64,000 bases of DNA, taken from contig JBFMAF010000032.1 of the NCBI GenBank assembly GCA_040755995.1, forward strand, positions 1 through 64,000, given 5' to 3'. The notes under the pieces were generated by a model. That model was given only the letters and a program-made list of their open reading frames with translations. It made no database searches and was not told where the DNA came from. The translations under genes and the position numbers were made by a program. The DNA is from Acidobacteriota bacterium (GTDB taxonomy: Bacteria; Acidobacteriota; CAIWXX01). Positions 43,072 to 64,000 of this stretch are shown here, in pieces; the stretch's first letter is position 1; every line of letters starts with the position of its first letter.

Positions 43072-43215
43072 TCACGAGCGTTCCGCACGAATGCGATCGA
43101 GGCAGCACTTCTTGAATTTCTTTCCTGACCCGCAAGGACATGGGTCGTTGCGCCCGACCGGGCGCGTGACTGGTGTGGGTGTCGCGGCTGACTTGCGGCT
43201 CAGCCTGATGATCTC
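43072..43215 (-). pseudogene. SEC-C metal-binding motif fragment overlapping the rtcB 3' end
   Basis: [19 protein letters not shown] in a frame different from rtcB, with no credible own start. Confidence 0.65.
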
Positions 43216-44609: not shown

Positions 44610-44610
44610 C

Positions 44611-45633
44611 TCACCTCCCGCCGATCTCTACTTCACACACAGCTGGAGCGACAGGCGAGACCGTGATCTCCACGTCCAGAAACCGCCTCACGATCTCGAT
44701 GTTGGTAGTCGTGTGGCGCGTGAGCTCGAGCGTTCGGAAGCAGCCGCCGCCGGCGAGCGCCATCGGGATCAAGAGCTGATCCGCGAGATGACGGCCGACA
44801 GGGACGCCGGCAGCAAGGTACTCCCGGACCTCCCGCACGACATCGCCCGCCACGGTTTCCGCCGGTTGCCCTTTTTCGCCAAACCCCGTGAACAGCTCGG
44901 TGACATGCTCGGATTCGATCTCGATCGTGAAGACGTTGCCTGGGCCGATCGATTCATCTACCTCGGTCACCTGGTAGCATTCACGCGGCCATGAGAGCTT
45001 TTCCTGCGCTACGCGCAGCTCGCGCTCGCCTATCGACCGCGGCAGCATCGCGACAGCAGCCCGTGCCATGCGCCGCCGGATCTCACCGCGCTCGGTCAGA
45101 TCCACTCTCGTCAGCTTGCCGCCCGGCTGCACGCTGACCCTCATCCTGCCTCCGCCTGCCGGGTAGAACCCGGGTCTCTCCAACGACGCGTCGACTCGGG
45201 CCCCCATCCGGTTCACGATCGGCAGGAATGCCTTGGCCAGGAAGTCGAACGGGGGCGCAAACGGATTGTGTGTGCCGCCTTCGAGCAGAATGTCGGAGGC
45301 TCCACCCGCAACGAGCAGCGCCGGCAAGACCGTCTGCAGCACGAGCGTGCAGCTGCCGGCTGTCCCGACCGCGAAGTGGAAATCACCGGATCGAGTCCTG
45401 GACGGCGCGAAGGTGAGCTGCATGGAGCCGATGGCGTCTCCTTCGACATCTGCGCCGCCGACCTCGGCCGCCGCCCGCACCGCAGTCAAGTGCTGGCGCA
45501 TCAGACCGGGCTTCTTCCGACCCGCCCGGATGCGCTCGATCTTGAACGGCTTCCCGGTCACGAGCGAGAGCGCGAGCGACGTGCGCAGGATCTGGCCGCC
45601 GCCTTCGCCCGCGGAACCGTCAATCGTCATCAT
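44611..45633 (-). CDS. rtcA: RNA 3'-terminal phosphate cyclase
   Basis: IDGSAGEGGGQILRT, PGLMRQH, GGTHN, GFYPAGGG, HLADQL, HTTTN; GGAGGAG RBS before ATG 45633. Confidence 0.96.
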   Translation of the reverse strand: MMTIDGSAGEGGGQILRTSLALSLVTGKPFKIERIRAGRKKPGLMRQHLTAVRAAAEVGGADVEGDAIGSMQLTFAPSRTRSGDFHFAVGTAGSCTLVLQTVLPALLVAGGASDILLEGGTHNPFAPPFDFLAKAFLPIVNRMGARVDASLERPGFYPAGGGRMRVSVQPGGKLTRVDLTERGEIRRRMARAAVAMLPRSIGERELRVAQEKLSWPRECYQVTEVDESIGPGNVFTIEIESEHVTELFTGFGEKGQPAETVAGDVVREVREYLAAGVPVGRHLADQLLIPMALAGGGCFRTLELTRHTTTNIEIVRRFLDVEITVSPVAPAVCEVEIGGR

Positions 45634-45724
45634 TGCGTGCGCTCCTCCCCGATGTGTCCTGCTGGGGGCTTCAGGCGTCCCTCGCAGCCCTGTGACACTG
45701 AGTGAATCTATGCGATTCCCCATT

Positions 45725-45853
45725 GCGGCGACAAGTGTTGGTGAAACGCGTGCTCTGCCCGTTGAGCTACGGCCCCGCGATCGGTGGAGCCGGCGGGATT
45801 CGAACCCGCAACCACGTCGTCCAAAGCGATGTAATTCCACCGGCATTCGCCAC
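45725..45853 (-). ncRNA. yrlA: YrlA-type bacterial Y RNA (tRNA mimic)
   Basis: 5' GTGGCGAATGCCGGTG pairs with 3' CACCAACACTTGTCGCCGC; internal T arm GCGGG-TTCGAAT-CCCGC, acceptor-like stem GGCTCC/GGGGCC and D arm GCTC-AACGGGCA-GAGC in permuted order; downstream of rsr. Confidence 0.88.
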
Positions 45854-45911
45854 GATACCTCAGTTGCCATGCGTCGGTTGTCAGTTGTTAACCCTTCACA
45901 CTACCCGAAAT

Positions 45912-46004
45912 GTGGCGACAAGAGGTGGTGAGAGTTCCTGCGCGCATTTCGCGCGTGGGCTTCGAACCCGCCAGGTACCATGTACTCCCACCGGCATTCG
46001 CCAC
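45912..46004 (-). ncRNA. Second, shorter Y RNA (YrlB-like)
   Basis: Same terminal stem GTGGCGAATGCCGGTG / CACCACCTCTTGTCGCCAC; keeps GGG-TTCGAAG-CCC, lacks a D arm. Confidence 0.8.
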
Positions 46005-46041
46005 GATAGCTAGTTGTCAGTTGTGGGTTGTCAGAGGATCC

Positions 46042-47595
46042 TCATAGCTCCACCTGCTCGATTACTCCCACCCAGTGATCAGCCTTCAGCTTGCCGTCGG
46101 CGAACAGCTTCACGATCTCGAAAACGCGGTCCGAGAAACCGCCGACGTTCAGAATGTCCTCACGCTCGCAGGCCTGGGTCGTGCCGTACGGCTGGATGTC
46201 GATGCAGACCAGCCTGGCCGAAGGGTTCAGCTTCTTGAACCGGTTCCACTCGCGCATCGTCGCCGTCCCACGGCCGATACCGGCATCCACCCACGACTGG
46301 TTGTCCGAGATGAATATGACCAGATCACCTCGAGCCCTCTCGCCGTTCAGGCGCCGCAGCGGAGCGCTGCAGTTGGTGCCGCCGCCGCCGATGCCGCCGA
46401 GCTTCTGCGCGTTGGTCATGACGCTGTCCCGCGGATTGAATCGAAACGGAACCACGTTATGCTCGAAGGGAAGCACCTGCGCAGTCGGGTTCTTGCGGAC
46501 GATCGCCGCCGCGACCAGCGCGGCAACATCGATGCAACGGACGGCGCTGGTGGCGCCTTTGCGGTGGCCGGTGACGGAGGATCCCATCGAGCCCGAGACG
46601 TCCGGGCAGACAATAACTCTGCCTTCTACCCGAGGGACGTTCTCGATCGCGATCTCCATCGCATCCTGCAGGGCTTCACGAATCTCAGCCGGCACACCCT
46701 TCCTCGCCGCCTGGCACCCCATCAGCAGCTGGTACGGAAAGGCCCGCGCCTTTCTTATCGCATCGCGATCCCGCAAGCGGTCGGCCACGAAAGCGACCAT
46801 CTCGCGATCGGCAAACACGCCGTGACGGACGAACGTGTTCAGGTTCATGCGCGTCATCTGCCAGCCGCCCTGTCTTGCGATCTGAGTCCACTCGCGCCGG
46901 CCGAGGCTCAACCCCGTCAGCATCTCGAACGGGACATCCGGCGCCTCTCCTCGGGGATCGGCCTTGAACTCCTCGAACCTGCGTACGACCTCCGGCAGAG
47001 CCGTCGTGTCGACCTGGCGCCCGATCATGTAGCCATAGAGCGCCTCTCGACTCTTCGTCCTCGGCTTCGGATGGACCATCTTCACGATATCGGCCAGCGA
47101 CGGGTCGTTGCCGACGCAGGCTCGAAAGACCGCCTCGTCCTCCCGCGCATCCAGCCAGTCACGCACGAGACGGCGCGGGAGCGTGCCCAGCGACTTGCGA
47201 CCCGCAACGCCGGACCGAATGATCTGTACGAAGTTGCGGAGCATCTTGCCGTTGTCGATGACCCGTTCGAAGACGCGGCCGAGCAGCTCCGGGGACCTGC
47301 TCGCAAGCACGGCACACAGGAGCGCCGGCATGTCCTTCATCGCCCCCTGCTCGCGCGCGTACACGGCCGTGCGGGCGACGAACTCCGCCGGGACCTTCGC
47401 GCAGAGGCTGCGAACGGTGTCCAGCTGCTCGCCGGCCGTAGCATAGAACGTCCGGTTCAGACAGCCCGTCGCAGTGTACTGCGCCAGCGCCTGCTGCGGA
47501 GTGAATGCGTAGGCCGGCGCCAATTCCTCGTTGACCGCCGTCGTCTCCCCGATCAACTTGCCCACCAGGCTCTTGAACAGCGTCTTGTTGGCCAT
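46042..47595 (-). CDS. rsr: Ro60/Rsr RNA-binding protein (TROVE + vWA)
   Basis: LAQYTATGCLNRTFY, MKDMPALL, WQMTRMNLNTF, FPYQL, MIDAS DVSGSM, GGGTNC, SDNQSW. Confidence 0.93.
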   Translation of the reverse strand: MANKTLFKSLVGKLIGETTAVNEELAPAYAFTPQQALAQYTATGCLNRTFYATAGEQLDTVRSLCAKVPAEFVARTAVYAREQGAMKDMPALLCAVLASRSPELLGRVFERVIDNGKMLRNFVQIIRSGVAGRKSLGTLPRRLVRDWLDAREDEAVFRACVGNDPSLADIVKMVHPKPRTKSREALYGYMIGRQVDTTALPEVVRRFEEFKADPRGEAPDVPFEMLTGLSLGRREWTQIARQGGWQMTRMNLNTFVRHGVFADREMVAFVADRLRDRDAIRKARAFPYQLLMGCQAARKGVPAEIREALQDAMEIAIENVPRVEGRVIVCPDVSGSMGSSVTGHRKGATSAVRCIDVAALVAAAIVRKNPTAQVLPFEHNVVPFRFNPRDSVMTNAQKLGGIGGGGTNCSAPLRRLNGERARGDLVIFISDNQSWVDAGIGRGTATMREWNRFKKLNPSARLVCIDIQPYGTTQACEREDILNVGGFSDRVFEIVKLFADGKLKADHWVGVIEQVEL

Positions 47596-47624
47596 CTCTC
47601 TTCTCCTGCTCGTTCATTCACCAC

Positions 47625-47640
47625 TGCATGGACCGTGCCA
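47625..47640 (-). promoter_or_regulatory. Sigma54 (-24/-12) promoter of the rsr-yrl-rtcA-rtcB operon
   Basis: Minus strand TGGCACGGTCCATGCA = GG-N10-GC, about 30 bp upstream of rsr. Confidence 0.85.
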
Positions 47641-47729
47641 GCCGCAGCCGCATGACGGGGCTGTCCCGCAAAGGCCCGATTCTCAACGAGCTCCGGCTGG
47701 GCGGGCTCGCGTGGGGTTGAGAACACACC

Positions 47730-47763
47730 TATTCCATAGTATAATTCCTTATAGAGATGGATA
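47730..47763. promoter_or_regulatory. Candidate RtcR upstream activator sequence
   Basis: AT-rich imperfect inverted repeat TAT-N7-TATAA-N4-TTATA-N7-ATA about 100 bp upstream of the sigma54 promoter, overlapping the rtcR start. Confidence 0.5.
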
Positions 47764-49373
47764 AAGTGACCAAACGAACCGTTCTTCTCGGGCTGCTCGG
47801 GCCGGTGCTCGACCGGAGCCAGGGGGCGACCCGCTGGGAGCTCTGGCGACCGTCGGTGGCCGCCTGCCAGCACGAGGATCTGCTGGTCGACCGCTTCGAG
47901 CTTCTCTATCAGCGACGCTACGAGAAGCTCGCGAAGGTCGTGGCGCAGGACGTCGGGTCCGTATCTCCGGAGACGCAGGTGCGCCTGCACATGGTGGATT
48001 TCGAGAACCCTTGGGATTTCGTCGAGGTCTACGGTGTGCTGCACGATTTCGCGAAGCACTATGTCTTTGATCCGGATCGCGAAGAGTACTTGATCCACAT
48101 CACGACCGGAACGCACGTGGCCCAGATCTGCATGTTCCTGCTGACCGAGTCGCGCTACTTCCCGGCAAAGCTCATCCAGACCAGCCCGCCCAAGCGCCCC
48201 GAGAAGGGCGGCCCGGGCGAATACTCGATCATAGATCTGGATCTGTCCAAGTACGACCAGATCGCAATGCGGTTCCGGATGGAGGCGCGAGACGACATCT
48301 CCATACTGAAGTCCGGCATCGAGACTCGCAATCGAGCCTTCAACGCCCTCATGGAACAGATCGAGCACGTCGCGGTCAGCTCCTCTGACCCGATTCTCCT
48401 GACGGGACAGACAGGGGCCGGGAAGAGTCACCTGGCCAGGCGCATCTTCGAGGTCAAGAAGGTCCGGCGCAAGCCGGAGGGCGAATTCGTGGAGGTCAAC
48501 TGCGCGACGATCCGCGGCGATGCCGCCATGAGCGCGCTGTTCGGCCACAAGAGAGGCTCCTTCACCGGGGCCGTGCAGGACCGCGCGGGCCTGCTTCGGG
48601 CCGCAGACCGCGGCATGCTCTTCCTGGACGAGGTGGGCGAGCTCGGGCCGGACGAGCAGGCGATGCTGCTGAGGGCGGTCGAGGAGAAACGGTTTCTCCC
48701 GGTCGGAGCTGATCGCGAAGCCGAGAGCCGGTTTCAGTTGATCTGCGGCTCGAACCGCGATCTGCAGGCCGAGGTGGCTCGCGGCCGCTTCCGCGAGGAT
48801 CTCCTCGCACGAATCGACCTCTGGACGTTTCGCCTGCCGGGGTTGCGGGAGCGGCCGGAGGACATCGAGCCGAATCTGCGCTACGAGCTGGACCGGTTCG
48901 CCGAGAGAAACGGCGCGCGCGTGACGTTCAACAAGGAGGCGCTCGGCCGTTTCCTGGAGTTCGCCACCTCGCCGGAGGCCAGCTGGACCGCCAACTTCAG
49001 AGACCTGAACGGTGCCGTGGCTCGCATGGCAACGCTCGCCCCGGGCGGAAGGATCACGCCGGGGGTAGTCGAGACCGAAATCGTCCGGCTGCGTAGATCC
49101 TGGCGAAGCATAGAACCACCGTCCGGCGACTCAATCCTGACCGACGTGCTCGGGCCTAAACGCGCATCCCAGATCGATCTCTTCGACCAGGTTCAGCTCT
49201 GCGAGGTTCTCAGGCTCTGCCGCCGAAGCCGCACCCTGTCGGAGGCGGGTAGAAGCCTCTTCAACGTCTCACGTCATAAGAAGAGGTCCGTCAACGACGC
49301 CGACCGGCTCAGGAAATACCTGGAACGGTTCGGGCTGAGCTGGGAGGACGTGACGTTCGATCGCGGCGCTTGA
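47757..49373 (+). CDS. rtcR: Sigma54-dependent RNA repair activator RtcR
   Basis: N-terminal RWELWRPSV...NPWDF...HITTGTHVAQIC (CARF-like); AAA+ GQTGAGKS, GSFTGA, FLDEVG; NDADRLRKYL tail. Confidence 0.95.
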   Translation: MDKVTKRTVLLGLLGPVLDRSQGATRWELWRPSVAACQHEDLLVDRFELLYQRRYEKLAKVVAQDVGSVSPETQVRLHMVDFENPWDFVEVYGVLHDFAKHYVFDPDREEYLIHITTGTHVAQICMFLLTESRYFPAKLIQTSPPKRPEKGGPGEYSIIDLDLSKYDQIAMRFRMEARDDISILKSGIETRNRAFNALMEQIEHVAVSSSDPILLTGQTGAGKSHLARRIFEVKKVRRKPEGEFVEVNCATIRGDAAMSALFGHKRGSFTGAVQDRAGLLRAADRGMLFLDEVGELGPDEQAMLLRAVEEKRFLPVGADREAESRFQLICGSNRDLQAEVARGRFREDLLARIDLWTFRLPGLRERPEDIEPNLRYELDRFAERNGARVTFNKEALGRFLEFATSPEASWTANFRDLNGAVARMATLAPGGRITPGVVETEIVRLRRSWRSIEPPSGDSILTDVLGPKRASQIDLFDQVQLCEVLRLCRRSRTLSEAGRSLFNVSRHKKRSVNDADRLRKYLERFGLSWEDVTFDRGA

Positions 49374-49453: not shown

Positions 49454-49471
49454 TTACTACATATGTAGTAA
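49454..49471. promoter_or_regulatory. Perfect 18-bp palindrome, BlaI/MecI/CopY-type operator candidate
   Basis: TTACTACATATGTAGTAA with a TACA-N2-TGTA core. Confidence 0.55.
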
Positions 49472-49596
49472 TGCCTGAGGCTGATCGCTGCGCCTGCAGG
49501 ACGGCAGCCACGCCGTTCCTCGGGAATGTGACCGGCGTCACCGGCAACAGACTCGCGTGGAGTTACGATAAGAGTAGATGCATGCGGAAGGAGGGT

Positions 49597-50328
49597 ATGG
49601 TGATGGTGCCACAATTCAGTGTGTATGGACGATTGTTCGTCGCCGTCTGCGTTCTCGGGGTGGCCGCTTCGGGGACCTACCTCAGGGCGCAGAAGTTCGA
49701 GATGGGAGCGGGTTTCGTCGCGGGTGTGCCGGCGGGCGAATTCGGCGATTCGCTGGACGCGACGGGTTACGGCTTCTCCATCCGCTTCGGCTACCTGGTG
49801 GGCGACGGCCCCATCCGGGTCGGCGGGGATTTCGGCTTTCTGCGCTACGGCTCGGAGAAACACTCGGAGATCCTCTTGAGCGACATCCCGGACGTACGAG
49901 TCGACGTCGAGACGACCAACAACATCCTCCTCGGCCACTTCTTCTTGCGGGCGCAGCCGCGAAGCGGCGCCGTCCGCCCTTACGCAGAAGCGCTGATCGG
50001 CGTGAGCTACCTCTTCACCGACACCAGCATCCAGAACGAGCGCACCGGCGAGGAATTCGCCTCATCGATCAATCTCGACGACTCGGTGTTCTCGTACGGG
50101 TTCGGTGGAGGTGTCGAGCTGGTGCTGTGGGACGGCATGAAGCGCGCCGGGACGCCCATACCCATACAGCTTCTGCTTGACGGCAGACTCCGCTACCTGC
50201 GCGGCTCCAACGCGCGCTACCTCAAGGAAGGGTCCATCAGCCGCGAGAACGACCAGGTCACCTACGAGATCCTGGAATCGCGCACCGACCTGCTCCTGCC
50301 CGAGATCAGTCTCGCCTTGCGATTTTGA
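49597..50328 (+). CDS. Outer-membrane beta-barrel protein
   Basis: AAGGAGG RBS; signal peptide; VRPYAE..G and GFGGGVE; terminal LALRF. Confidence 0.75.
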   Translation: MVMVPQFSVYGRLFVAVCVLGVAASGTYLRAQKFEMGAGFVAGVPAGEFGDSLDATGYGFSIRFGYLVGDGPIRVGGDFGFLRYGSEKHSEILLSDIPDVRVDVETTNNILLGHFFLRAQPRSGAVRPYAEALIGVSYLFTDTSIQNERTGEEFASSINLDDSVFSYGFGGGVELVLWDGMKRAGTPIPIQLLLDGRLRYLRGSNARYLKEGSISRENDQVTYEILESRTDLLLPEISLALRF

Positions 50329-51978: not shown

Positions 51979-52040
51979 TGTGACGATAATCACACCCTCG
52001 CCAACGGGTGATTGACATCGCCCGACGCTGCTCTTATTTT
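51979..52040 (+). promoter_or_regulatory. CRP/FNR-family box plus sigma70 promoter upstream of the multiheme cytochrome
   Basis: TGTGA-CGATAA-TCACA 51979-51994; TTGACA 52012-52017, 17 bp, TATTTT 52035-52040. Confidence 0.65.
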
Positions 52041-52373
52041 GACGTGGGCAGAACAAGCATGAGGACCGCGGAAGTATGCCGACTGAGAGCCATGATGAGG
52101 CTCGCGACGCTCGTGGAACGCGGTCCATCTGCGGCGATCTGAGCGTGCGGCTCGGAGTGCAACGTCGCGGTTGCCGCCGTATGTCCAGGCGCTGATGGCG
52201 CACGGAGCCGAGGCATCCGCCGCCGTGCGCGCACAGTCCGCGACCGTGGATCGCGCGCGTCGTCCGGAGCAGGAACTCGCTCCGTCCGGAGCGATGTTTC
52301 GATTCGTCCCGCGCACAATGACCATACATGTCCTTGTCGCCGTGATGACGGGCTACTTCTGAAGGGAGGACTC

Positions 52374-55300
52374 ATGAGGCAAGCATGGATTCTCGCGGTC
52401 TCACTTGCCGTGCTGCCCCGCAGCGGTGTGGCGCAGGCTTTGAGCGATCTTATCTCTCCGGGCGAGCTCTCGTCGGCGCACGCCAAGTACTCCGGGGTGA
52501 AAAACTGCAATGTCTGTCATGGCGGCGACAGGGATGTCCTGGAATCGAGGTGCGAGGATTGTCACAAGGAATTGGCTGCCAGGATTGTCGCCGGCAAGGG
52601 GTTCCACGCAGACAAGGGCGGGCGCTGCGTGAGCTGCCATAGCGAGCACCTCGGCAAGGACTCCGACATCCGCGCTCTCGACCGGTCGACGTTCAACCAC
52701 GACCAGACGGGCTACAAGCTGGCAGGCAAGCATTCGGCGATCAAGGATTGCGCGCGCTGCCACAAGACGCGGTCCTTCCTCGGGAATCGCACAACCTGCC
52801 AATCCTGTCACAACGACAGGCATCAGGGGCGACTGCCAAACTGCGAGCAGTGTCATTCATTCGATCGCTCGTTCAAGGAGCCGTCGTTCGATCACAGCAC
52901 CGCGCGCTATGTGCTCACGGGCGCGCACACCCGCGTGGCGTGCTCAGCGTGCCACAAGAACGAAGTCTTTCGGGGTCTGGCGTTCGACCAGTGTGGCGCG
53001 TGTCACACGGATCCACATCGCAAGATGCTGGGCACGGACTGCTCGCGCTGTCACCGGACCGAGCTGTGGAAGGGCGTCCAGGTGCCGCACAAGACTTTTC
53101 CCCTCGCCGGGAAACACGCGGCCGTGGATTGCGCGAAGTGCCACCCGGAAGGCCGGTGGAAGCTGGCCGCGTTTGGAAAGTGCGCCGACTGCCACAAGGA
53201 CAAGCACCTGGGGCAATTCAAGCAGCCGTGCGAGGACTGTCACTCTGTGAACGGCTTCAAGCCGGCCAAGTTCAACCACGATCGTTTCAAGCTTGAGCTG
53301 AAGCATGCGATCGATTGTCAGAAGTGCCACAAGAGCGAGAAGGGCGCCTTCCCGGCGGGCACCGGCACTACCGTTCGATACAAGCCGATGAATGCCGCCT
53401 GCGCATCCTGCCACAAGGACCCCCATGCGCAGCAACTCGGGGCGAAGTGCGAGAACTGCCACACTATCGCTTCCTTCAAGCTGACGGGATTCGATCACTC
53501 GAAGGCCCGCTACCCGTTGGACGAGAAGCACGCCAAGGTGGCGTGCGAAAAGTGCCACAAGAAGGATGCCAAGACAGGCGGGGTGATTTACAAGCCGCTG
53601 GCGATGAACTGCGGTGCCTGCCATTCGGACGTGCACCTGGCGCAGCTCGGCCAGAACTGCGAACGCTGCCACGCTCCGGCGCGATTGCTGTTCACTCACA
53701 CCATGACGACCTACCCGCTCGAAGGCAAGCACGCGAGCGTCTCCTGCGAGAAGTGCCACAAGAAGGAGAAGGGGACCTTCCCCGCGGGCGCCGGCGAGGC
53801 CGTTCGATACAAGCCGATCGCCCGTGCGTGCGCCACGTGCCACGCCGACTATCACCGCGGTCAGTTCCCACGGGATTGTGCGGCCTGCCATACGACGGCC
53901 TCGTTCAAGCCCACGTCGTTCGCTCACGCCAAGAGCGAATATCCGCTCAAGGGCAAGCACACCAACTTGCAGTGCGACCGGTGCCACAAGCAGGAGGTCT
54001 TCCCGGCTCCGCCTCCGCCGGCGACCCTCGTACGGTACCGGCCGATGGCGAAGGTGTGCTCTGCTTGCCACCGCGATCAGCACGCCGGCGTCTTCGGATC
54101 CGACTGTGCGAAGTGCCACGACGAACGGACGTGGCACGGGATCAATGCCACGTTCCACAGGTCGACAGCGTTCCCGTTGACAGGCCGGCATGTCACGGTA
54201 CCGTGCGTTTCGTGCCACATCTCTCCCGGGGCCACGCCCACGGCGTGCGAGTCATGCCACATGAAACGGCGGCAGGACGACCCGTTCAGAGGGCGGCTGG
54301 GGCTTGCATGCGCGCAATGCCACAACACTGGCGGCTGGAGTCCCGTGCAGTTCGATCACGGCGCGAGGACCGGGTTTGCGCTTGTGAGCGAGCATTCCGG
54401 GCTCAGGTGCCAGGCGTGCCACCCGGGACAGATCGAGGCCGTCACGTCGACGTGCGCAGGGTGTCACATGAAGGACTACGACTGGGCGCGAACGCCGCCG
54501 CACAAGGCGATCGGACTGTCTACCGACTGCCGTGTCTGCCACTTCCCGGGCGACGGCGCATGGTCGGCGGGACGGTACACGCACCGGAGCTACCAGCCGC
54601 TGGGCCGGCACTCTGCGGCCGCCTGCGATGCCTGTCACAGTGGTGGTCGATACGCCGGTCTCTCACAGGAATGCTATGCCTGTCACAAACCCGACTACGA
54701 TCGCACGCAGAACCCCAATCACATCAAGGTCGGGTTCTCCACCGATTGCGTGCTCTGCCATCGCGCGGGCGATTCGAGCTGGACTCAGGGCAGGTTCGAC
54801 CACAGCGGATTCCCGCTGCAGGGCGGGCACGTCGGACTCGCGTGCGAGAGCTGTCACGAGGGAGGCAAGTACAGCGGTCTCTCGACGGACTGCTACTCCT
54901 GCCACAGGGCCGATTACGACTCGACGACCAACCCCAATCACAAGACCGCCGGCTTCCCGACAGATTGCATCGTCTGTCACAAGGCCACGGACACGAGGTG
55001 GGAGCAGGGCAGGTTCGACCATAACAGCAGCGACTTCCCCCTGCAGGGGGCGCACGCGAAGCTGGCGTGCGAGAGCTGTCACAAGGGAGGGAAGTACTCG
55101 GGGCTCTCTCCGGACTGCTACTCCTGCCACAAGGCGGATTACGACGGGACGACAGATCCCAATCACAGGACAGCCGGCTTCCCGACTTCCTGTGTAGTCT
55201 GCCACAAAGCAACAGACACGAATTGGAATCAGGGGAAGTTCGACCACGCCAACACCGGCTTCGCGCTGCAGGGGGCGCACACGAAGCTGGCGTGCGAAAG

Positions 55301-56795
55301 CTGTCACAAGGGAGGGATCTACACCGGGCTATCGCCGGACTGCTATTCCTGCCACAAGGCGGATTACGACGGGACGACAAACCCGAATCACAAGACCGCC
55401 GGCTTCCCGACCTCCTGTATCGTCTGCCACAAGGCAACAGACACAAACTGGAATCAGGGGAAGTTCGACCACAGCAACACCGGTTTCACGCTGCAGGGCG
55501 CGCACACGAAGCTGGCGTGTGCGAGCTGCCACAAGGGCGGGGTGTACACCGGGCTGTCAGCAGACTGTTATTCCTGCCACAAGGCGGACTACGACGGGAC
55601 GAAGAACCCGAATCACAAGAACGCCGGTTTCCCGACATCATGCCTCCTGTGTCACAAGGCGACGGACCTGAACTGGCGACAGGCGAAGTTCGACCACGGG
55701 ACGACCGGCTTCCCACTGCAGGGCGCGCACACCAAGCTCGTCTGCGAGAGCTGTCACAAGGGCGGTAAGTACACAGGGCTCTCTCCGGATTGCTACTCCT
55801 GCCACAAAGCAGACTACGACGGGACAGCAAATCCGAATCACAAGAATGCCGGCTTCCCGACATCGTGCGTCGTCTGCCACAAGGCGACGGACACGAACTG
55901 GCATCAGGCCAAGTTCGACCACGCGACGACCGGCTTCGCGCTGCAGGGTGCGCACACCAAGCTCGTCTGCGAGAGCTGTCACAAGGGCGGTAAGTACACA
56001 GGGCTCTCTCCGGATTGCTACTCCTGCCACAAAGCAGACTACGACGGGACGGCAAATCCGAATCACAAGAATGCCGGCTTCCCGACCTCCTGCATCGTCT
56101 GCCACAAGGCGACGGACACGAACTGGCATCAGGCCAAGTTCGACCACGCGACGACCGGCTTTGCCCTCCAAGGCGCACACGCGAAGCTCGCTTGTGCGAG
56201 CTGTCACAAGGGCGGGGTCTACGCCGGGCTCTCCAGTGATTGCTACTCCTGTCACAAGGCCGACTACGACGGCACGAAAAACCCCAATCACAAGAGCGCC
56301 GGCTTTCCGACATCCTGCATCGTCTGTCACAAGGCCACCGACACGAGCTGGCATCAGGCGAAGTTCGACCACGCAAATACCGGCTTCCCACTTCAGGGGG
56401 CTCACACCAGTCTCACGTGTGAGAGCTGTCACAAAGGAGGGATCTACGCAGGGCTCTCCACGGACTGCTATTCCTGCCACAAAGCCGATTACGACACGAG
56501 CACAAACCCGAATCACAAGAACGCCGGATTCCCGACGGACTGCTCGACCTGCCACTACGCAACCGATACTTCGTGGAACCAGGGCCGCTTCGATCACCGA
56601 TTCCCGATCAGCAGCGGCAGGCACAAGTTCGCGTGCTCGTCGTGCCACACCGATCCCTCCAACTACCGGGTCTTCGACTGCCTGAGCTGCCATCCCCTCT
56701 CGTCCATCCAGGACAAGCATAGAGAGGTAGGCGGGTTCCAGTACACGTCTCAGGCATGCTACGCATGCCATCCGAACGGGACTGCAGACGATTAG
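52374..56795 (+). CDS. Giant secreted multiheme cytochrome c (60 CxxCH motifs, 20 triheme modules)
   Basis: GGGAGG RBS; signal peptide; 60 CxxCH counted by hand, with regularly spaced extra His (FDH, GAH, PNH). Confidence 0.95.
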   Translation: MRQAWILAVSLAVLPRSGVAQALSDLISPGELSSAHAKYSGVKNCNVCHGGDRDVLESRCEDCHKELAARIVAGKGFHADKGGRCVSCHSEHLGKDSDIRALDRSTFNHDQTGYKLAGKHSAIKDCARCHKTRSFLGNRTTCQSCHNDRHQGRLPNCEQCHSFDRSFKEPSFDHSTARYVLTGAHTRVACSACHKNEVFRGLAFDQCGACHTDPHRKMLGTDCSRCHRTELWKGVQVPHKTFPLAGKHAAVDCAKCHPEGRWKLAAFGKCADCHKDKHLGQFKQPCEDCHSVNGFKPAKFNHDRFKLELKHAIDCQKCHKSEKGAFPAGTGTTVRYKPMNAACASCHKDPHAQQLGAKCENCHTIASFKLTGFDHSKARYPLDEKHAKVACEKCHKKDAKTGGVIYKPLAMNCGACHSDVHLAQLGQNCERCHAPARLLFTHTMTTYPLEGKHASVSCEKCHKKEKGTFPAGAGEAVRYKPIARACATCHADYHRGQFPRDCAACHTTASFKPTSFAHAKSEYPLKGKHTNLQCDRCHKQEVFPAPPPPATLVRYRPMAKVCSACHRDQHAGVFGSDCAKCHDERTWHGINATFHRSTAFPLTGRHVTVPCVSCHISPGATPTACESCHMKRRQDDPFRGRLGLACAQCHNTGGWSPVQFDHGARTGFALVSEHSGLRCQACHPGQIEAVTSTCAGCHMKDYDWARTPPHKAIGLSTDCRVCHFPGDGAWSAGRYTHRSYQPLGRHSAAACDACHSGGRYAGLSQECYACHKPDYDRTQNPNHIKVGFSTDCVLCHRAGDSSWTQGRFDHSGFPLQGGHVGLACESCHEGGKYSGLSTDCYSCHRADYDSTTNPNHKTAGFPTDCIVCHKATDTRWEQGRFDHNSSDFPLQGAHAKLACESCHKGGKYSGLSPDCYSCHKADYDGTTDPNHRTAGFPTSCVVCHKATDTNWNQGKFDHANTGFALQGAHTKLACESCHKGGIYTGLSPDCYSCHKADYDGTTNPNHKTAGFPTSCIVCHKATDTNWNQGKFDHSNTGFTLQGAHTKLACASCHKGGVYTGLSADCYSCHKADYDGTKNPNHKNAGFPTSCLLCHKATDLNWRQAKFDHGTTGFPLQGAHTKLVCESCHKGGKYTGLSPDCYSCHKADYDGTANPNHKNAGFPTSCVVCHKATDTNWHQAKFDHATTGFALQGAHTKLVCESCHKGGKYTGLSPDCYSCHKADYDGTANPNHKNAGFPTSCIVCHKATDTNWHQAKFDHATTGFALQGAHAKLACASCHKGGVYAGLSSDCYSCHKADYDGTKNPNHKSAGFPTSCIVCHKATDTSWHQAKFDHANTGFPLQGAHTSLTCESCHKGGIYAGLSTDCYSCHKADYDTSTNPNHKNAGFPTDCSTCHYATDTSWNQGRFDHRFPISSGRHKFACSSCHTDPSNYRVFDCLSCHPLSSIQDKHREVGGFQYTSQACYACHPNGTADD
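55010..56600 (+). repeat. In-frame 225-bp (75-aa) tandem repeat, about seven well-conserved units
   Basis: ACCAAGCTCGTCTGCGAGAGC at 55731 and 55956 (period 225); each unit encodes three hemes. Confidence 0.9.
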
Positions 56796-56874: not shown

Positions 56875-57152
56875 CTACGGGACTGCGCACGATCGAAGCT
56901 CGATGCCGGCTCGCCGGAGCAGATCGTATGGAAGCTCCCCGCAGGCGAAAACGAATACGTAATCGTCCGGGATCTCCTCGATGCCCCCAGCTGTGCGGAG
57001 CATCACGCAGCACCACCGACAATCGCCGTTTTCTGGAGCTTCTCCCGAGCGCGCTTCTCCGCCAGGCGGTAGCGGACCAGGTACGGAAGGACGGTTGCAC
57101 CGCAGAAACCGAGCCCGAGCCCGATTATCAGCAAGCTGCTCGTCCCAAACAT
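56875..57152 (-). pseudogene. Internally deleted membrane-anchored thioredoxin-reductase-like oxidoreductase
   Basis: 57152-57003 MFGTSSLLIIGLGLGFCGATVLPYLVRYRLAEKRAREKLQKTAIVGGAA*; then in another frame EEIPDDYVFVFACGELPYDLLRRAGIE to the stop at 56875. Confidence 0.55.
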
Positions 57153-57257: not shown

Positions 57258-58049
57258 TCAGAATGCGCGGCTCAGGAGGAGCACCACGGCCTGCGTGCGC
57301 AGCTCCGCCCGTGTCGCGCCGATCGGGATGACCTTGGTCTCGTTGGTCGTAGGCCGGTAACGGATCGCGTCGCCCGCGTCGGTGTTCACTTCACCGAGGT
57401 CGGCATATCTGTATTCGACCTGCAGCATCCATTTCTCGTGCAGCTGCCGGCTGATGCCCGCCCTCAGGTCGAATGCAAAGTCGGACCGCACCCCACCCGG
57501 TGTCGTCATCGTGTGCGGGACGGCCAGAGTCGGGTACCACATGACGATCTGGTCGACCTTGTTTCGAGACACGCCGAATCCGCCGCCGGCGTAAGGCTCG
57601 AGCGCAAAGAAACGCCAGCCGGTGAGCTCCGAAAAGTCCACCTGGACGCCCACGATCGCCGCGAGTGCTTTCACTTTCCCATGGACCGGCTCGGGAGCCG
57701 GCGGCGTCAGGAAGTCGCTCTGTCCCTCGAACTCCAGCTGCGGGTGGTATCCCACTCGCAGGTCAGTCGTCAGCCAGGGTGACAACTCATAGGCGACGCC
57801 GGCTCCGACAATCATCGAGCCGCCGAAATCCCCGGCGGCGCGATAGCCGCAGCCGTACAGCGGCGTGGGCGTCTTGATCCGGCAGTTCACGTCGCGGAAC
57901 GAGGCATCAGTCGAGAGCTCGTAGCCGATTTCCAGGAGAAGCCGCATCCTTCCGTCGCCGCCTGATGCGCATCGCGAGGCCAGGGCGAAGACAAACCCCA
58001 CCAGCCATACGCGCTTCCAGCAGCTCTGTGACCTGGCGAGCTCTTTCAT
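57258..58049 (-). CDS. Outer-membrane beta-barrel protein (opacity/OmpA-like)
   Basis: EPYAGGGFGVSRN, VEYRYADLG, terminal Phe. Confidence 0.78.
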   Translation of the reverse strand: MKELARSQSCWKRVWLVGFVFALASRCASGGDGRMRLLLEIGYELSTDASFRDVNCRIKTPTPLYGCGYRAAGDFGGSMIVGAGVAYELSPWLTTDLRVGYHPQLEFEGQSDFLTPPAPEPVHGKVKALAAIVGVQVDFSELTGWRFFALEPYAGGGFGVSRNKVDQIVMWYPTLAVPHTMTTPGGVRSDFAFDLRAGISRQLHEKWMLQVEYRYADLGEVNTDAGDAIRYRPTTNETKVIPIGATRAELRTQAVVLLLSRAF

Positions 58050-58076
58050 GACGGCACTCCCATCGCTTCTCGCTCA

Positions 58077-58616
58077 CTACATGAGCGGTAGCACGATCCC
58101 GGCGGAGTACCTGACGTTGTCCGCAGGCTCCTCGAACGTGTATACGCGCTCGTAGTCGAGCTGGACCGGGCGTATCATGATGTTCCCAATCACCCTCAAG
58201 TCGACGCCTCCGCCCACGGCAAACGCGAACCCGCCGTCGCTCGATGAGGTCTGGCGGACGTCCACTCTGCTGCGAGCCACACCCAGGAGCACGCGGGCGA
58301 ACGCCCGGATCGTGCCGCATTCCTCGCAGGAGCTGGCGAGGAGCTGTGGGCCCGCCATGATCGTGTGGGTGCTCACGTCGGCACTCGTTTCACCTTGGCT
58401 GCCGTACGTACCCGCCCCCTCAATCACGAGCAGCAGGTGCTCGTTGATTCTCGCATTCAGCGCCAGGTTCCATCCGTTCATATTGACCGCTTCTTCATCG
58501 CCTGCAGCACTGCGTACGAAACAATATCCTCCGAAGAGCTCCATCTTGGGCACTTCGGCGGCGAAGCCCAGATTCGCCGGCAGCAACATCAGCGCGAGTG
58601 CCATCAGTACCCTCAT
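58077..58616 (-). CDS. Small outer-membrane beta-barrel protein
   Basis: Signal peptide; ELFGGY, NGWN, FAFAVGGGVD, RPVQLDY, NVRYSAGIV; GGAGGG RBS. Confidence 0.78.
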   Translation of the reverse strand: MRVLMALALMLLPANLGFAAEVPKMELFGGYCFVRSAAGDEEAVNMNGWNLALNARINEHLLLVIEGAGTYGSQGETSADVSTHTIMAGPQLLASSCEECGTIRAFARVLLGVARSRVDVRQTSSSDGGFAFAVGGGVDLRVIGNIMIRPVQLDYERVYTFEEPADNVRYSAGIVLPLM

Positions 58617-58644
58617 CGTGCATCCCTCCACCGGTGGCATTCTA

Positions 58645-58705
58645 TACAGCGCGTGATGAGTCCACAACAAATCCCACGAGTGGACGCAGTGTATGACGCG
58701 CTGTA
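58645..58705. mobile_element. 61-bp palindromic MITE/REP-like element, copy 2
   Basis: TACAGCGCGTGAT...ATGACGCGCTGTA flanked by CTA/TAG; same length as 30896-30956. Confidence 0.7.
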
Positions 58706-60361: not shown

Positions 60362-60892
60362 TCATCTGGCAGGCGGTCCCATCATCGCATCGAGGCGTCT
60401 TGCGCTCAGGAACAGTCGATAAGGGTGACCGGGCATCGATGCGAAATCCCACTTCTGATAGAAGGTCCTTGCCTCATCGTTGATGCAATCGAGGATCACC
60501 GCAACGAAGGCGAACGTCTTCCCGGCCTCATAGCAGCTCTGCAGGGCGCACGCGAGAAGGGTGCGACCTATGCCCCCGCCCTGATGGGCTGTGCTGACGC
60601 CGAGCCAGGCCAGGACCGCGACGGGCAACGCCCGGCGTGGGAGATGCTTCGTGATCTCGGATGTCAAATCCCCGAAGTCTACCTGGGCGGTCGCCAGGGT
60701 GTAGCAACCGGCGATGCCCCCGTCTCGGTCAACCAGGACCTCCGTCACTGACAATCGCTTTTCTTGGTGCTGCAGCGCTTTTGTGCGAAGCCAGTCATCC
60801 ACAGTGCCCTCACCGCACCGGAACGCACTGCGTGGGTGTTCGCGGCGCAGGCACTCGACCCGATACCCGTCCGGGAGCCGGATTGCGGTCAG
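60362..60892 (-). CDS. GNAT-family toxin (AtaT/TacT-like)
   Basis: R.AFRCGEGTVDDWL, LPVAVLAWLGV...QGGGIGRTLL, ARTFYQK; frame open to a CTG at 60892 overlapping the antitoxin stop. Confidence 0.85.
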   Translation of the reverse strand: MTAIRLPDGYRVECLRREHPRSAFRCGEGTVDDWLRTKALQHQEKRLSVTEVLVDRDGGIAGCYTLATAQVDFGDLTSEITKHLPRRALPVAVLAWLGVSTAHQGGGIGRTLLACALQSCYEAGKTFAFVAVILDCINDEARTFYQKWDFASMPGHPYRLFLSARRLDAMMGPPAR

Positions 60893-61197
60893 TCTTCACC
60901 TCGCATAATAGCGCCGAGCCGCCGCTGTGCCTCAGTCAGTCTGGGCGCCTCGCTCAGCGCGTTCCAGAACTCCAGTTGTTCTTCCGGTGTCAGGGCTATC
61001 GTTTGTTCATGGGATGCATGCAGTTCGCGTCGTGCCTGTGCCACCATCACCGTTCGCACGTAGTCACTGATGCTTATGTGCCTCAGCTGCGCCGCCTGGT
61101 ACAGGTAGCTCTTGCTCTGCGGATCCAGACGCACCATGAGCGACCTTGTGGCCGGTGCCGAGTTGCGCGACCGTCGTGCCGAACGAGATCTGAGCAT
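60889..61197 (-). CDS. DUF1778 ribbon-helix-helix antitoxin
   Basis: LMVRLDPQSK..L.QAA.LR.ISISDYVR, IALTPEEQLEFWNAL; GAGGA RBS. Confidence 0.88.
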   Translation of the reverse strand: MLRSRSARRSRNSAPATRSLMVRLDPQSKSYLYQAAQLRHISISDYVRTVMVAQARRELHASHEQTIALTPEEQLEFWNALSEAPRLTEAQRRLGAIMRGED

Positions 61198-61219
61198 GCT
61201 TAGTCCTCCATTCCCCGCA

Positions 61220-61242
61220 TTGTACTGCAGTTTGCAATACAA
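61220..61242 (-). promoter_or_regulatory. Toxin-antitoxin autoregulatory operator overlapping the -10 box
   Basis: TTGTACTGCA-GTT-TGCAATACAA inverted repeat (9/10); minus-strand TACAAT at 61219-61224. Confidence 0.65.
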
Positions 61243-61326
61243 ATCAATCTCGCTGGAGCTGCACAGATCGACGGCATGGTCGTCCGGTCTGCGAATGTGA
61301 ACGAGTCCCACTCAGTCGCACTGTTC

Positions 61327-63567
61327 CTACTTTACGTCCAGCGGCACCCAGTCGAAGACGCTGGTTCCGTTCATCTTGTCCGTTGCAGTCACCTTGAGCC
61401 AGCAGAGCCCGGCAGGGAGCTTCTCGGCGTGGATGTCGAACATGTACTCGATCTGCGAGTCGGAGATGCGATTGGGCTTCTCGAGGAGCTTGAACTGCGG
61501 CTGCCCGAGATACCTGCCGCCCTGATCGAAGATCTCCCACCGCAGCCCGATGTCGGGCTCCTTGGTGCCCGAGTCGAACGAGAAATTGTAGAGTCTGATC
61601 AGCAGCCCCCGGTCATCGCGGTCCTGGACGTTCGGGTAGATCTCTGCCGTGCACGGCTTGGCTCGATATGAGATCGGGTAGTAGCCGCCGAGTCCGGCAA
61701 CACGGGCCGGCGGCTTTTCGGTGTCGTAACCGAGCACGTTCAGCCACTCCGACTTGCCGCTGACGAAGAACGGTGTGGCCATGGCGAAGGTGGTCGACGC
61801 CTTCTGCGCGGCCGCTTTCACCGTGGTCGTGCCGATGTCGCCCGTGAGACCGTTTCGAACCAATACTCGTATCTCGTACTCTCCCGGAGGAAGCAGCATC
61901 ATGTCGCTGTAGCGCAGGCCGCCCTTCTGAATCCCGCCATTCGCCTCCGACGGTGGGATTCTGCAGAAACCGTGCGCGTACCCGTCGAATGTGCCTTTCG
62001 GGCCGACGGCGAACGCATACACTTCCAGCAGCAGCTCGCGCTTGGCCTTCTCGAACTGTCCCCCGGGGATCTGCAGCAGGACCGCAACGGGCACCTGGCC
62101 GCTCTGTTCCGGAAACACGGCCGCCTGGGCCCGGAGCTTCAGGTTGTCCATCGAAAGGTTATCGCTGACCACTTCTGCGATCTGAAGCTGCCTGTCTTCC
62201 TTGGAGAGTTTGCTGAATGGAATCGGATCGTGGTAGCCCGGCCGGTAGGAGATACTCAAGCCCCGTCGGGCGACCTCCACCTTGATCTTGTGGTACTTCT
62301 CCTGCTCGGACGCGGGCCGCACAGGCACGTTGTAGCCGAGGAGGTAGAATGAGCCCGTGGTGTCGAGTACGTCGGCCATCGCGGCATCGATATCGTTGGT
62401 GTTCTTGTATAGCTTCCCGCCCGTCTCGTCGGCGAATTCGAAAAGCGACGCCTGCCTTCGACCAACGGCCTGTGGATCGGCGGAGCTCTCATCAATCAGG
62501 TCGAGGTTGGCATCGCCGGCCAGTCCGGAGGTGTCGATCGGGAACACCTTACAGTCGGAGGACGCCAGGTATCGGGCGGCCTGATGCATCACATCGGAAA
62601 GGTCCCGCCTGACCTCGCGCTCCTCATTCACACCCGACGCTGCCATCCATTCGAAGTCCCCGTGGGCCGCCATCTCCGCCTGTTCCGCTGCCGTTTTCAG
62701 ATCCATGGCACCCAACACCTTAGTGTCGAATCCGTTGGAGAAGTAGATCAGGTACTTGCGGCCGGGGAAGAACTCGAGCGATCGCGCGAATGACCGCATC
62801 CCTTCCAGGTACGCGGAGACGGTGTTGGTATAGAACTCCGCGTCGTTGCGCTTGCCCATCGCATTCAATTGGCGCATCCACAGATTCGCTTCGTCCTGAT
62901 TCCCTCCCGCCCCATCCGATAGACGCGACAATCCCTCCACCATCACCCCGCCCTGGTGCGTCTGAAGCAACACCTGGTTGAAGTACCCACCGGCATCCGT
63001 CACAACGTCGAAACGGCGATCGATGCCCAGCGAGTCCAGAGCAGAGCGCAGCAGCTGCTTGTCCGAAGTGAAGTTGGCCACCAGGAAGATCCCCTTAAGG
63101 GAGGAGAACGCGAACACCGCGGCCCGGTCCTCAGGGTCCATTTTCGTATCGACGAATCGGTAGGCCGCTTGCCTCGCCCGTATGAGGCCCTGAGCCGAAT
63201 TGAACGTCACATCGAAGAAGAAGACGAAATTGCGCCGGATGAGTTGCTTCGGAAGCACGCTCTCGGCTCGCTTCCCCAGATCGATCGGTAAGAATATCTC
63301 GATCTTCTGTGCCTTCCCGTCTTCGTATACCGAAAACTCTTCCTGCGTGAGATCGAGCACCGGCTTGCCCGCGTCGTCCCGCGCGAACACCGGAACCTCG
63401 ACGATCGACACTCCGGCTTCTTCCTTGGGCTGTTGCGCGTGCGCGAACCCGGAACCGACACACAAGGCAACAGCGCAACTTGCGCCGGCTCCGCACAGCC
63501 GCAACTGCGCCAAGCGTGGCCTCCGATCCGCACGAACTCCAAGACCATCGACAATTCGCCAAACCAT
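61327..63567 (-). CDS. VWFA-related (Acidobacterial-type) VWA domain protein
   Basis: VEVPVFARDDAGKPVLDLTQEEFSVYEDGK, GRKYLIYFSNG, ADETGG, YLLGY, YRPGY; AGGAGG RBS. Confidence 0.85.
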   Translation of the reverse strand: MVWRIVDGLGVRADRRPRLAQLRLCGAGASCAVALCVGSGFAHAQQPKEEAGVSIVEVPVFARDDAGKPVLDLTQEEFSVYEDGKAQKIEIFLPIDLGKRAESVLPKQLIRRNFVFFFDVTFNSAQGLIRARQAAYRFVDTKMDPEDRAAVFAFSSLKGIFLVANFTSDKQLLRSALDSLGIDRRFDVVTDAGGYFNQVLLQTHQGGVMVEGLSRLSDGAGGNQDEANLWMRQLNAMGKRNDAEFYTNTVSAYLEGMRSFARSLEFFPGRKYLIYFSNGFDTKVLGAMDLKTAAEQAEMAAHGDFEWMAASGVNEEREVRRDLSDVMHQAARYLASSDCKVFPIDTSGLAGDANLDLIDESSADPQAVGRRQASLFEFADETGGKLYKNTNDIDAAMADVLDTTGSFYLLGYNVPVRPASEQEKYHKIKVEVARRGLSISYRPGYHDPIPFSKLSKEDRQLQIAEVVSDNLSMDNLKLRAQAAVFPEQSGQVPVAVLLQIPGGQFEKAKRELLLEVYAFAVGPKGTFDGYAHGFCRIPPSEANGGIQKGGLRYSDMMLLPPGEYEIRVLVRNGLTGDIGTTTVKAAAQKASTTFAMATPFFVSGKSEWLNVLGYDTEKPPARVAGLGGYYPISYRAKPCTAEIYPNVQDRDDRGLLIRLYNFSFDSGTKEPDIGLRWEIFDQGGRYLGQPQFKLLEKPNRISDSQIEYMFDIHAEKLPAGLCWLKVTATDKMNGTSVFDWVPLDVK

Positions 63568-63694
63568 TTTCAGCCACCTCCTCCTACGAGACCGTGACAC
63601 CTCCGGCGGTCGTCCACCGCCGACGGGTTGACTACTCTGCCCTTTATCATAGCACCCTCCCTCGGCCGGGGTGCGCACGAGGTGTGGCGGAGCC

Positions 63695-64000
63695 TCACCT
63701 CAGCTCGAGCGGCACCCAGTCGGATATGGCCCCTCCTTTCATCTTGTCCGTCGCCGTCACCTTGAGCCAGCAGAGCCCGGCAGGGAGCTTCTCGGCCCGG
63801 ATGTCGAACATGTACTCGATCTGCGAGTCGGAGATACGGTTGGGCTTCTCGAGCAGCTTGAACTGCGGCTGCCCGAGATACCTGCCGCCCTGATCGAAGA
63901 TCTCCCAACGCAGCCCGATGTCGGGTTCCTTGGTGCCCGAGTCGAACGAGAAATTGTATAGCCGGATCAGAAGCCCCCGGTCGCCGCGGTCCTGAATGTT
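63695..64000 (-). CDS. 3' end of a paralogous VWA domain protein (runs off the window)
   Basis: NIQDRGDRGLLIRLYNFSFDSGTKEPDIGLRWEI...DWVPLELR*, nearly identical to the C-terminus of 61327-63567. Confidence 0.85.
   Translation of the reverse strand, partial: NIQDRGDRGLLIRLYNFSFDSGTKEPDIGLRWEIFDQGGRYLGQPQFKLLEKPNRISDSQIEYMFDIRAEKLPAGLCWLKVTATDKMKGGAISDWVPLELR

Follow-up and report, generated by a model that had tools for sequence, protein, structure and literature searches.

We describe a gene for a cytochrome c with 60 heme-binding motifs that lies in a 64,000-nt stretch of DNA from an Acidobacteriota bacterium (the window; contig JBFMAF010000032.1, to which coordinates without a contig label refer). 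Judged by its sequence and those of its homologs, the gene joins, head to tail, the two large cytochromes of a PCC3-type cluster, a kind of gene cluster in which such cytochromes are encoded together with an outer-membrane barrel. It is this fusion and the module at its seam that appear to be new; the heme count is not news. We also consider it fairly likely that the protein is made, matured by the Ccm system and working as a heme wire with a barrel that is now encoded elsewhere in the genome, on contig C43. Below, G000 is the source genome, with its contigs C11, C23 and C43, and G001 a genome of a sister genus.

The reading frame is intact and is preceded by an AGGAGG-type site (Table 1). Its N-terminus, read by eye, has a basic start, a hydrophobic stretch and the sequence GVA/Q, with no lipobox Cys. 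All 120 Cys lie inside the 60 CxxCH motifs, which bears out the count and the density of about one heme per 24 aa given in the original prediction; the exact value is one per 24.5 aa, within the 22–39 aa per heme of PCC3. Among the 26 frames of the 7.7-Mb genome that have at least two CxxCH, this is the largest by far, the runners-up having 19 motifs. The motifs are grouped, as had been predicted, into 20 three-heme modules, each ordered H..H..CxxCH..CxxCH..H..CxxCH. Outside the motifs the chain has 63 His, of which 59 occupy module positions and four are sporadic (588, 1177, 1252 and 1327), and it has 8 Met. The first two His of a module are spaced 8–11 residues apart, with the third placed between hemes 2 and 3; no His is found between hemes 1 and 2 in any of the 20 modules. 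The expectation of three extra His per module holds for 19 of the 20 and fails in module 9, which has two. The spacer between hemes 2 and 3 is 15–16 residues long in modules 2–8, 21 in module 9 and 25 in modules 10–19, so the two halves do differ in module type, as had been noticed earlier. The absence of any other domain also stands, as all five Pfam matches are to cytochrome families.

Table 1. Features of the cytochrome gene and its surroundings (positions in the window)
Feature	Position	Strand	Remarks
Promoter-like region	51979..52054	+	TGTGA-N6-TCACA at 51979-51994, TTGACA at 52012, TATTTT at 52035-52040, 12-nt leader word; consensus matches only
Probable remnant of the inner-membrane protein gene, last 15 codons and stop	52315..52362	+	Profile positions 279-293 of 296
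60-CxxCH cytochrome c, intact gene, 1473 aa, fused A + B PCC3-type cytochromes	52374..56795	+	
Likely Sec signal peptide, residues 1-20	52374..52433	+	Read by eye; mature part of homologs begins at the same Q before an SPG motif
Part A, modules 1-8, 24 hemes, homolog of periplasmic PCC3 cytochrome	52434..54122	+	Residues 21-599 compared with P0213
Module 9, seam, first B-type module, without third His	54144..54347	+	Motif CHW-x-RRQDD, with Met replacing Trp here
Part B, modules 10-19	54348..56573	+	Contains 225-nt tandem array 54802-56536 (7.7 copies, 84% matches)
Module 20, conserved C-terminal cap	56574..56792	+	Similar C-termini in most of the best 120 relatives; near-invariant alignment columns
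Remnant of 4Fe-4S/FAD membrane-anchored oxidoreductase gene, internally deleted, frameshifted	56875..57152	-	E 5e-9

The evidence for a fusion comes from relatives in which the two parts, A and B, are separate. Six relatives encode them as two genes, and all five second (B) genes whose starts were inspected have a signal peptide of their own. The earlier suggestion that two cytochrome genes had been joined is thereby borne out and made more exact: the seam falls between modules 8 and 9 (24 + 36 hemes), modules 1–8 corresponding to the periplasmic subunit and module 9 to the module with which the second cytochrome begins. Residues 21–599 can be aligned with P0213, a 27-heme cytochrome of Gallionellaceae, at 33% identity over 609 columns (pairwise E 2e-82). 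Part B is built on a 75-aa three-heme unit. Of the best 120 long relatives, our own protein being one of them, 29 pass a filter for A+B fusions (32 a looser one). The heme count of part A is 24 in 27 of the 29 fusions and 21 in the other two, and the fusion totals range from 46 to 81.

The seam itself has a signature. A spacer of the module-9 type is present in 28 of the 29 fusions; in five of these a His occurs at a different position. All six B proteins from split loci with a short barrel contain the motif CHW-x-RRQDD within a spacer that is missing the third His, and none of 17 B proteins of other clades does. The corresponding DNA pattern was found in 10 of 401 genomes of the phylum, all 10 being among the 51 that have an A-type match. 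In a tree of the barrels (26 rows, midpoint root; built without the barrels of L026, L028, L035, L047, L064, L070, L072, L073, L075 and L076), the seven fused rows all fall in one supported short-barrel clade (100/99) together with six split rows, and no such fusion is found among the rows outside it. A single origin of the fusion is not supported, because the tree needs at least two label changes. We also rejected the idea that barrels lost an N-terminal domain upon fusion of the cytochromes, since the six split loci have the short barrel too.

The related loci have a recurring cluster: a cytochrome of 20–24 hemes, a second one of 10–53 hemes, an outer-membrane barrel, a heme-b inner-membrane protein (IMP) that has SGXXG and two copies of WX3HX13H and, in many cases, a membrane-anchored 4Fe-4S/FAD oxidoreductase. 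The IMP gene directly precedes the cytochrome in all seven other fused loci fetched, interrupted in one by an internal stop; all six that extend far enough have a barrel gene within the cluster. As described for PCC3, the clusters encode a periplasmic cytochrome with a median of 21 hemes, an 'extracellular' one with a median of 34 and up to 85, a porin, and an IMP bearing the same WX3HX13H pair and SGXXG (He, Barco, Emerson, Roden 2017, PMC5566968). The periplasmic subunits of Gallionellaceae are reported to have 21, 24 or 27 hemes (PMC9900912). The full published layout is seen in the proteobacterial locus L039 (IMP, a 24-heme cytochrome, a Thr/Ser/Ala/Gly-rich 35-heme cytochrome and barrel), the A module of which is the same as ours; the matches of the L039 relative include proteins of Gallionellaceae and of Aquabacterium sp., taxa named for PCC3.

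Our system resembles PCC3 in having a periplasmic-type 24-heme repeat part and a second repeat part (36), in its heme spacing and in a barrel of about 22 strands; the low-complexity repeat expected of PCC3 is present as the 225-nt array. It differs in that the second cytochrome is not a gene of its own but is fused in frame, and in that its part B uses the 75-aa three-heme module, whereas L039 uses a two-heme repeat. The His-poor seam module and the acidobacterial host also set it apart, as do the decay of the IMP and flavoprotein genes and the location of the barrel gene elsewhere in the genome. The original prediction missed both the membership in the PCC3 family and these decayed or moved partners. 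Other arrangements occur among the loci compared. A plasmid of the cultured aerobe Emticicia oligotrophica (pEMTOL02, NC_018749.1; L076) has a complete split cluster with IMP, flavoprotein, 23- and 40-heme cytochromes, barrel and ccsA. L031 and L047 each have, next to a barrel, just one cytochrome (33 or 30 hemes) built of A-like modules, and in L047 the IMP is fused to a ferredoxin-bearing domain.

The family is large, and its members are long. Of 7999 candidates (810–2578 aa) that were scored, at least 1908 match the cytochrome, and the heme count of the best 120 relatives has a median of 68 and a maximum of 100, with 86 of the 120 exceeding 60. Sixty hemes is an ordinary size in this family. 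The exceptional size claimed earlier cannot be upheld, nor can a record for 60 hemes: an 85-heme PCC3 protein has been known since 2017, and giant PCC3 cytochromes and the idea of a wire date from the same paper (PMC5566968). Matches occur in 18 of 61 genomes of the host phylum by one query and in 51 of 401 by another (our own genome counted; the thresholds differ too), and there is no cytochrome match in G002, a third family member. An acidobacterial host fits the TIGR03436 match in the window and the named close relatives.

As the count depends on a tandem array, it could have been inflated through over-assembly of the 225-nt repeats. Eight units, which are modules 12–19, were compared in 28 pairs. 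Identity between them is 69–96%, and the 28 pairs together show 535 synonymous and 430 non-synonymous codon differences. Doubt attaches to units 16 and 17 (96% identical), the remaining pairs being 69–88% identical. Over-assembly is unlikely, because the units have diverged and the longest exact repeat within the gene is 101 nt. Relatives with 60–72 hemes (P0017, P0025 and P0105) sit on contigs of more than 1 Mb, and an inflated count seems to us highly improbable.

The protein had been compared with GSU1996 of Geobacter sulfurreducens and the c7 family, and it might be a free-standing c7 polymer with no link to a porin. The two are alike in being one chain with three-heme modules in line, and the c7 label is what domain searches return: Pfam gives Cytochrome_C7 at E 2e-67, and the c7 triheme family TIGR04257 is the only one of 10 NCBIfam matches to reach its cut-off (40.7 vs 40 bits). 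GSU1996 (3ov0) is also the sole PDB sequence match of the single protein, a weak one (E 3e-7), and it is the best (E 7e-11) of nine sequences found in a profile search of solved structures, all of them weak, CxxCH-driven matches. The ESM Atlas gave c7/c3-labelled clusters and barrel clusters without names. The ligands, however, are differently ordered. In the alignment GSU1996 has an HxxH pair before the first heme and a third ligand between hemes 1 and 2, and each of its domains has one His-Met heme (PMC10138318); our modules have three His in another order, candidates for all-His ligation, and show no His-Met pattern. The protein has five times the hemes of GSU1996, and its homologs sit in IMP/barrel clusters. 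Gene context thus largely refutes the c7 reading, to which we give almost no weight; identity with a GSU1996-like polymer was rejected.

At the locus itself the cluster is no longer whole. The IMP gene probably survives as 15 codons ending 11 nt before the cytochrome start, a match with E 1e-4 in a search of 520 residues and E 0.11 (not significant) window-wide. No full IMP was found at the cytochrome locus, the sole full protein of the genome with the motifs being a paralog on C11. There (G000:C11:36735-38212, L038) the intact paralog accompanies a seven-heme cytochrome of the same module, and it is a possible substitute inner-membrane partner. Downstream, the oxidoreductase gene retains about 45 first and 55 last codons of about 430, some 340 being gone. 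Its two pieces are 50% and 56% identical to the intact ortholog of G001, and no full copy was found in the source genome, which is 99.8% complete. The loss of this flavoprotein is perhaps recent, because the remnants are no more diverged than working orthologs are.

The barrel fared differently. An intact ortholog is present at G000:C43:150516-151920; it is not beside the cytochrome, and the same-cluster arrangement that defines PCC3 is missing here. The protein is 52% identical to the barrel adjoining the 51-heme fusion of G001. Its confident model (pLDDT 85.7) shows a plug-less barrel of about 22 strands, and its best fold matches are 22-strand transporter barrels (Z 20.2, rmsd 4.7, 366 aligned). 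The gene is 3 kb from one for a 19-heme/cytochrome b protein and 8 kb from a DmsE/MtrB-like pair. In G001 the oxidoreductase adjoins the ortholog of this pair, which hints at an older common locus. The region G000:C43:139826-147553 (L077), with the DmsE-like decaheme, the MtrB-like barrel, a one-heme barrel-like gene and the 19-heme/cytochrome b protein, is a second porin-cytochrome system. A check of the genome for cytochrome c maturation and porin-cytochrome genes, proposed in the original prediction, was positive on both counts: besides the barrel ortholog and the pair on C43, Ccm homologs (CcmE, CcmF-like, CcmC-like and CcmA-like) were found on C23. ResB was not found in the source genome. 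The genome also has seven secretin genes. The cytochrome gene is now flanked by three small outer-membrane beta-barrel genes (PF13505) and an MFS transporter gene (49471-50328, plus strand; 57258-58670, minus strand), the small barrels being unlike the large barrel of the cluster.

Although separated, the cytochrome and barrel genes have similar regions upstream, each with a TGTGA-N6-TCACA box, TTGACA, a -10-like hexamer and the 12-nt word. The gap from the box to TTGACA is 17 nt before the cytochrome and 27 nt before the barrel. The alignment of the two regions scores 369, as high as none of 1500 random segments (mean 223, maximum 339), and the other 21 boxes score at most 284. Perfect boxes, which we take to resemble CRP sites, number 23 in the source genome where 3.2 are expected, at least one of them being merely CxxCH coding sequence; with up to one mismatch allowed, the box was absent upstream of the 16 homologous genes checked in other genomes. 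G001 has 19 boxes (control 2). A Crp/Fnr-like gene seems to be near the Ccm genes on C23.

How might such a protein work? Exported by Sec and loaded with heme by Ccm, it would form an unbroken heme wire, bis-His for the most part, and its docking in the 22-strand C43 barrel is predicted. His would ligate 59 hemes, and one heme, in module 9, would be open or otherwise ligated. GSU1996 has 12 hemes in 12 nm (title of a reference in PMC10138318); by analogy, at about 1 nm per heme, part A would be some 24 nm long and part B some 36 nm. The topology that we prefer, at slightly below an even chance within this reading, is one in which A spans the periplasm, module 9 lies in the barrel and the variable B is outside, where it would reach mineral, humic or cell-surface redox partners. 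It is suggested by the near-constancy of A, the clade-specific seam and the free variation of B. Because the inner-membrane input of the cluster (IMP and flavoprotein) has been lost here, electrons would have to enter from another quinol-linked partner, for which the 19-heme/cytochrome b protein and the C11 IMP paralog are candidates. Taken to its full extent, the proposal is that a lineage of Acidobacteriota has made of the two cytochromes a covalent wire, about 60 nm long, which runs across the outer membrane inside a plug-less 22-strand barrel and is exported in a manner so far undescribed, with a 24-heme periplasmic shaft, a His-poor seam gripped by the barrel and an outer arm of 22–57 hemes that added repeats can lengthen; in this genome, the wire would also be uncoupled from its inner-membrane input and kept under a promoter shared with the displaced barrel. 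We put this forward as tentative, and on balance rather doubtful.

The whole chain might instead stay in the periplasm, as a lateral wire or an electron store, with at most the C-terminal cap plugging the barrel. Storage has been proposed for PCC3 cytochromes (PMC9900912) and for GSU1996 (PMC10138318). The protein has a single Sec signal and neither a lipobox nor an export domain, the length of part B is free to vary, as would suit a store, and the cap module is conserved in fused and split forms alike. On the other side, the clade motif that accompanies the short barrel lies at the seam and not at the cap. A length of about 60 nm, moreover, exceeds by far the width of the periplasm. We think a wholly periplasmic chain unlikely, though it deserves to be taken seriously. 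The earlier idea of a long multiheme conductor or store is supported, as far as sequence comparison goes.

Several observations weigh against a wire that works with the C43 barrel. Since the oxidoreductase gene is dead and the IMP gene probably so, the system may be decaying. The IMP gene of G001 (L023:9257-10197, on G001:C171) has one in-frame TAA stop, from decay or a sequencing error. Of the 202 columns conserved among the fusions, our protein deviates from the consensus in 8, four of them in module 9; none of the other sequences in the set of 30 has as many (G001 has 7). The synonymous divergence (dS) from G001 is near saturation, and recent relaxation would not show. When the box is masked, the alignment score of the upstream regions falls to 289 (maximum of 600 random segments, 308), and a weak terminator-like hairpin (52277-52294) lies between the promoter-like region and the gene. 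The structural model of the cytochrome (residues 21–809, 789 residues, no hemes) is weak (pLDDT 66, pTM 0.28) and uninformative on fold, Foldseek finding no match at E<=0.001 and VIA a best Z of 2.7. Free A-type relatives have 21–45 hemes (24 or 27 in 84 of 120), which weakens the notion of part A as a ruler of the periplasm. The passage of a folded 36-heme tail through the barrel is unexplained. As to the published systems, PCC3 genes are transcribed in Sideroxydans CL21, but according to the same account no PCC3 complex has been tested functionally (10.1101/2025.02.27.639646), and the 'extracellular' label of the second cytochrome is a software prediction. Our assignment to PCC3 is based on layout, motifs, heme counts and the Gallionellaceae homolog, the published members having been compared by description.

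Some of these points would also fit a relic, in which loss of the conduit is under way and the cytochrome, now without a role, is all that is still intact at the locus. The flavoprotein is deleted, its leftovers suggesting recent loss; the IMP is almost gone, its G001 counterpart has the stop, the barrel has moved, G002 has no match and the consensus deviations are at their highest here. Against this, a 4.4-kb frame keeps 60 of 60 CxxCH and the module His beside an IMP region that has decayed nearly beyond recognition, and the barrel is intact with its similar promoter-like region. The long-term ratio of non-synonymous to synonymous divergence (dN/dS) is low as well: against G001 it is 0.16 for part A, 0.27 for modules 9–11 and 0.27 for the barrel, the controls DmsE and MtrB giving 0.13 and 0.20. 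The survival of all motifs next to a nearly erased IMP favours selection on the cytochrome, and we hold a relic to be distinctly improbable.

A working wire, then, remains our preferred reading, and it can be set beside other porin-cytochrome systems. With MtrAB(C)/MtoAB it would share the principle of a cytochrome in a barrel; in the fold search, the barrel model matched MtrB as well (Z 15.8, rmsd 6.8, 348 aligned). The sequences are not closely related, however (DmsE score 43 vs a cut-off of 192 bits), and the periplasmic and outer parts are separate in those systems. EET1/EET2 of peat Acidobacteriota are porin-cytochrome clusters of the same phylum, for which 3–116 motifs per protein were counted; their representative cytochromes have 8–13 hemes, and no such fusion is described in the accessible portion of that report (10.64898/2026.05.27.727921). 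Gene neighbourhoods with over a hundred motifs are on record (PMC11475568), and the accessible portion of PMC13390432 has no passage on PCC3. A published account of a two-cytochrome fusion or of the seam module was not found in the literature searched, which did not extend to subscription journals. A 51-heme cytochrome reported in an unbinned putative PCC may be such a fusion (He et al. 2019, PMC6344600).

PCC3-type clusters are widespread, and the fusion forces a choice about them: either a folded rod of many hemes is threaded through the barrel as a single chain, or the second cytochrome lies in the periplasm. If the former is true, it would be a new way of building a trans-envelope wire. 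If the latter is true, the fusion would show that the 'extracellular' cytochrome of PCC3 is not extracellular and that the published model is wrong. The seam module is a precise candidate for the barrel contact or for an open heme site, and the 75-aa module could serve directly as a scaffold on which heme wires are built to a desired length.

The rest of the window holds genes of other kinds. An RNA repair locus of a known kind occupies 43200-49373, with rtcB-like and rtcA genes, a YrlA Y-RNA (45722-45853, above the Rfam cut-off), an Rsr/TROVE-like gene and a divergent rtcR. On the minus strand, a gene for a TacA1-like antitoxin together with one for a GNAT acetyltransferase (60362-61311) is likely a toxin-antitoxin module. 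It is followed on the same strand by an acidobacterial VWA-domain gene (61327-63961, TIGR03436), and a near copy of the 3' end of this gene at about 63570-63961 suggests a tandem paralog.

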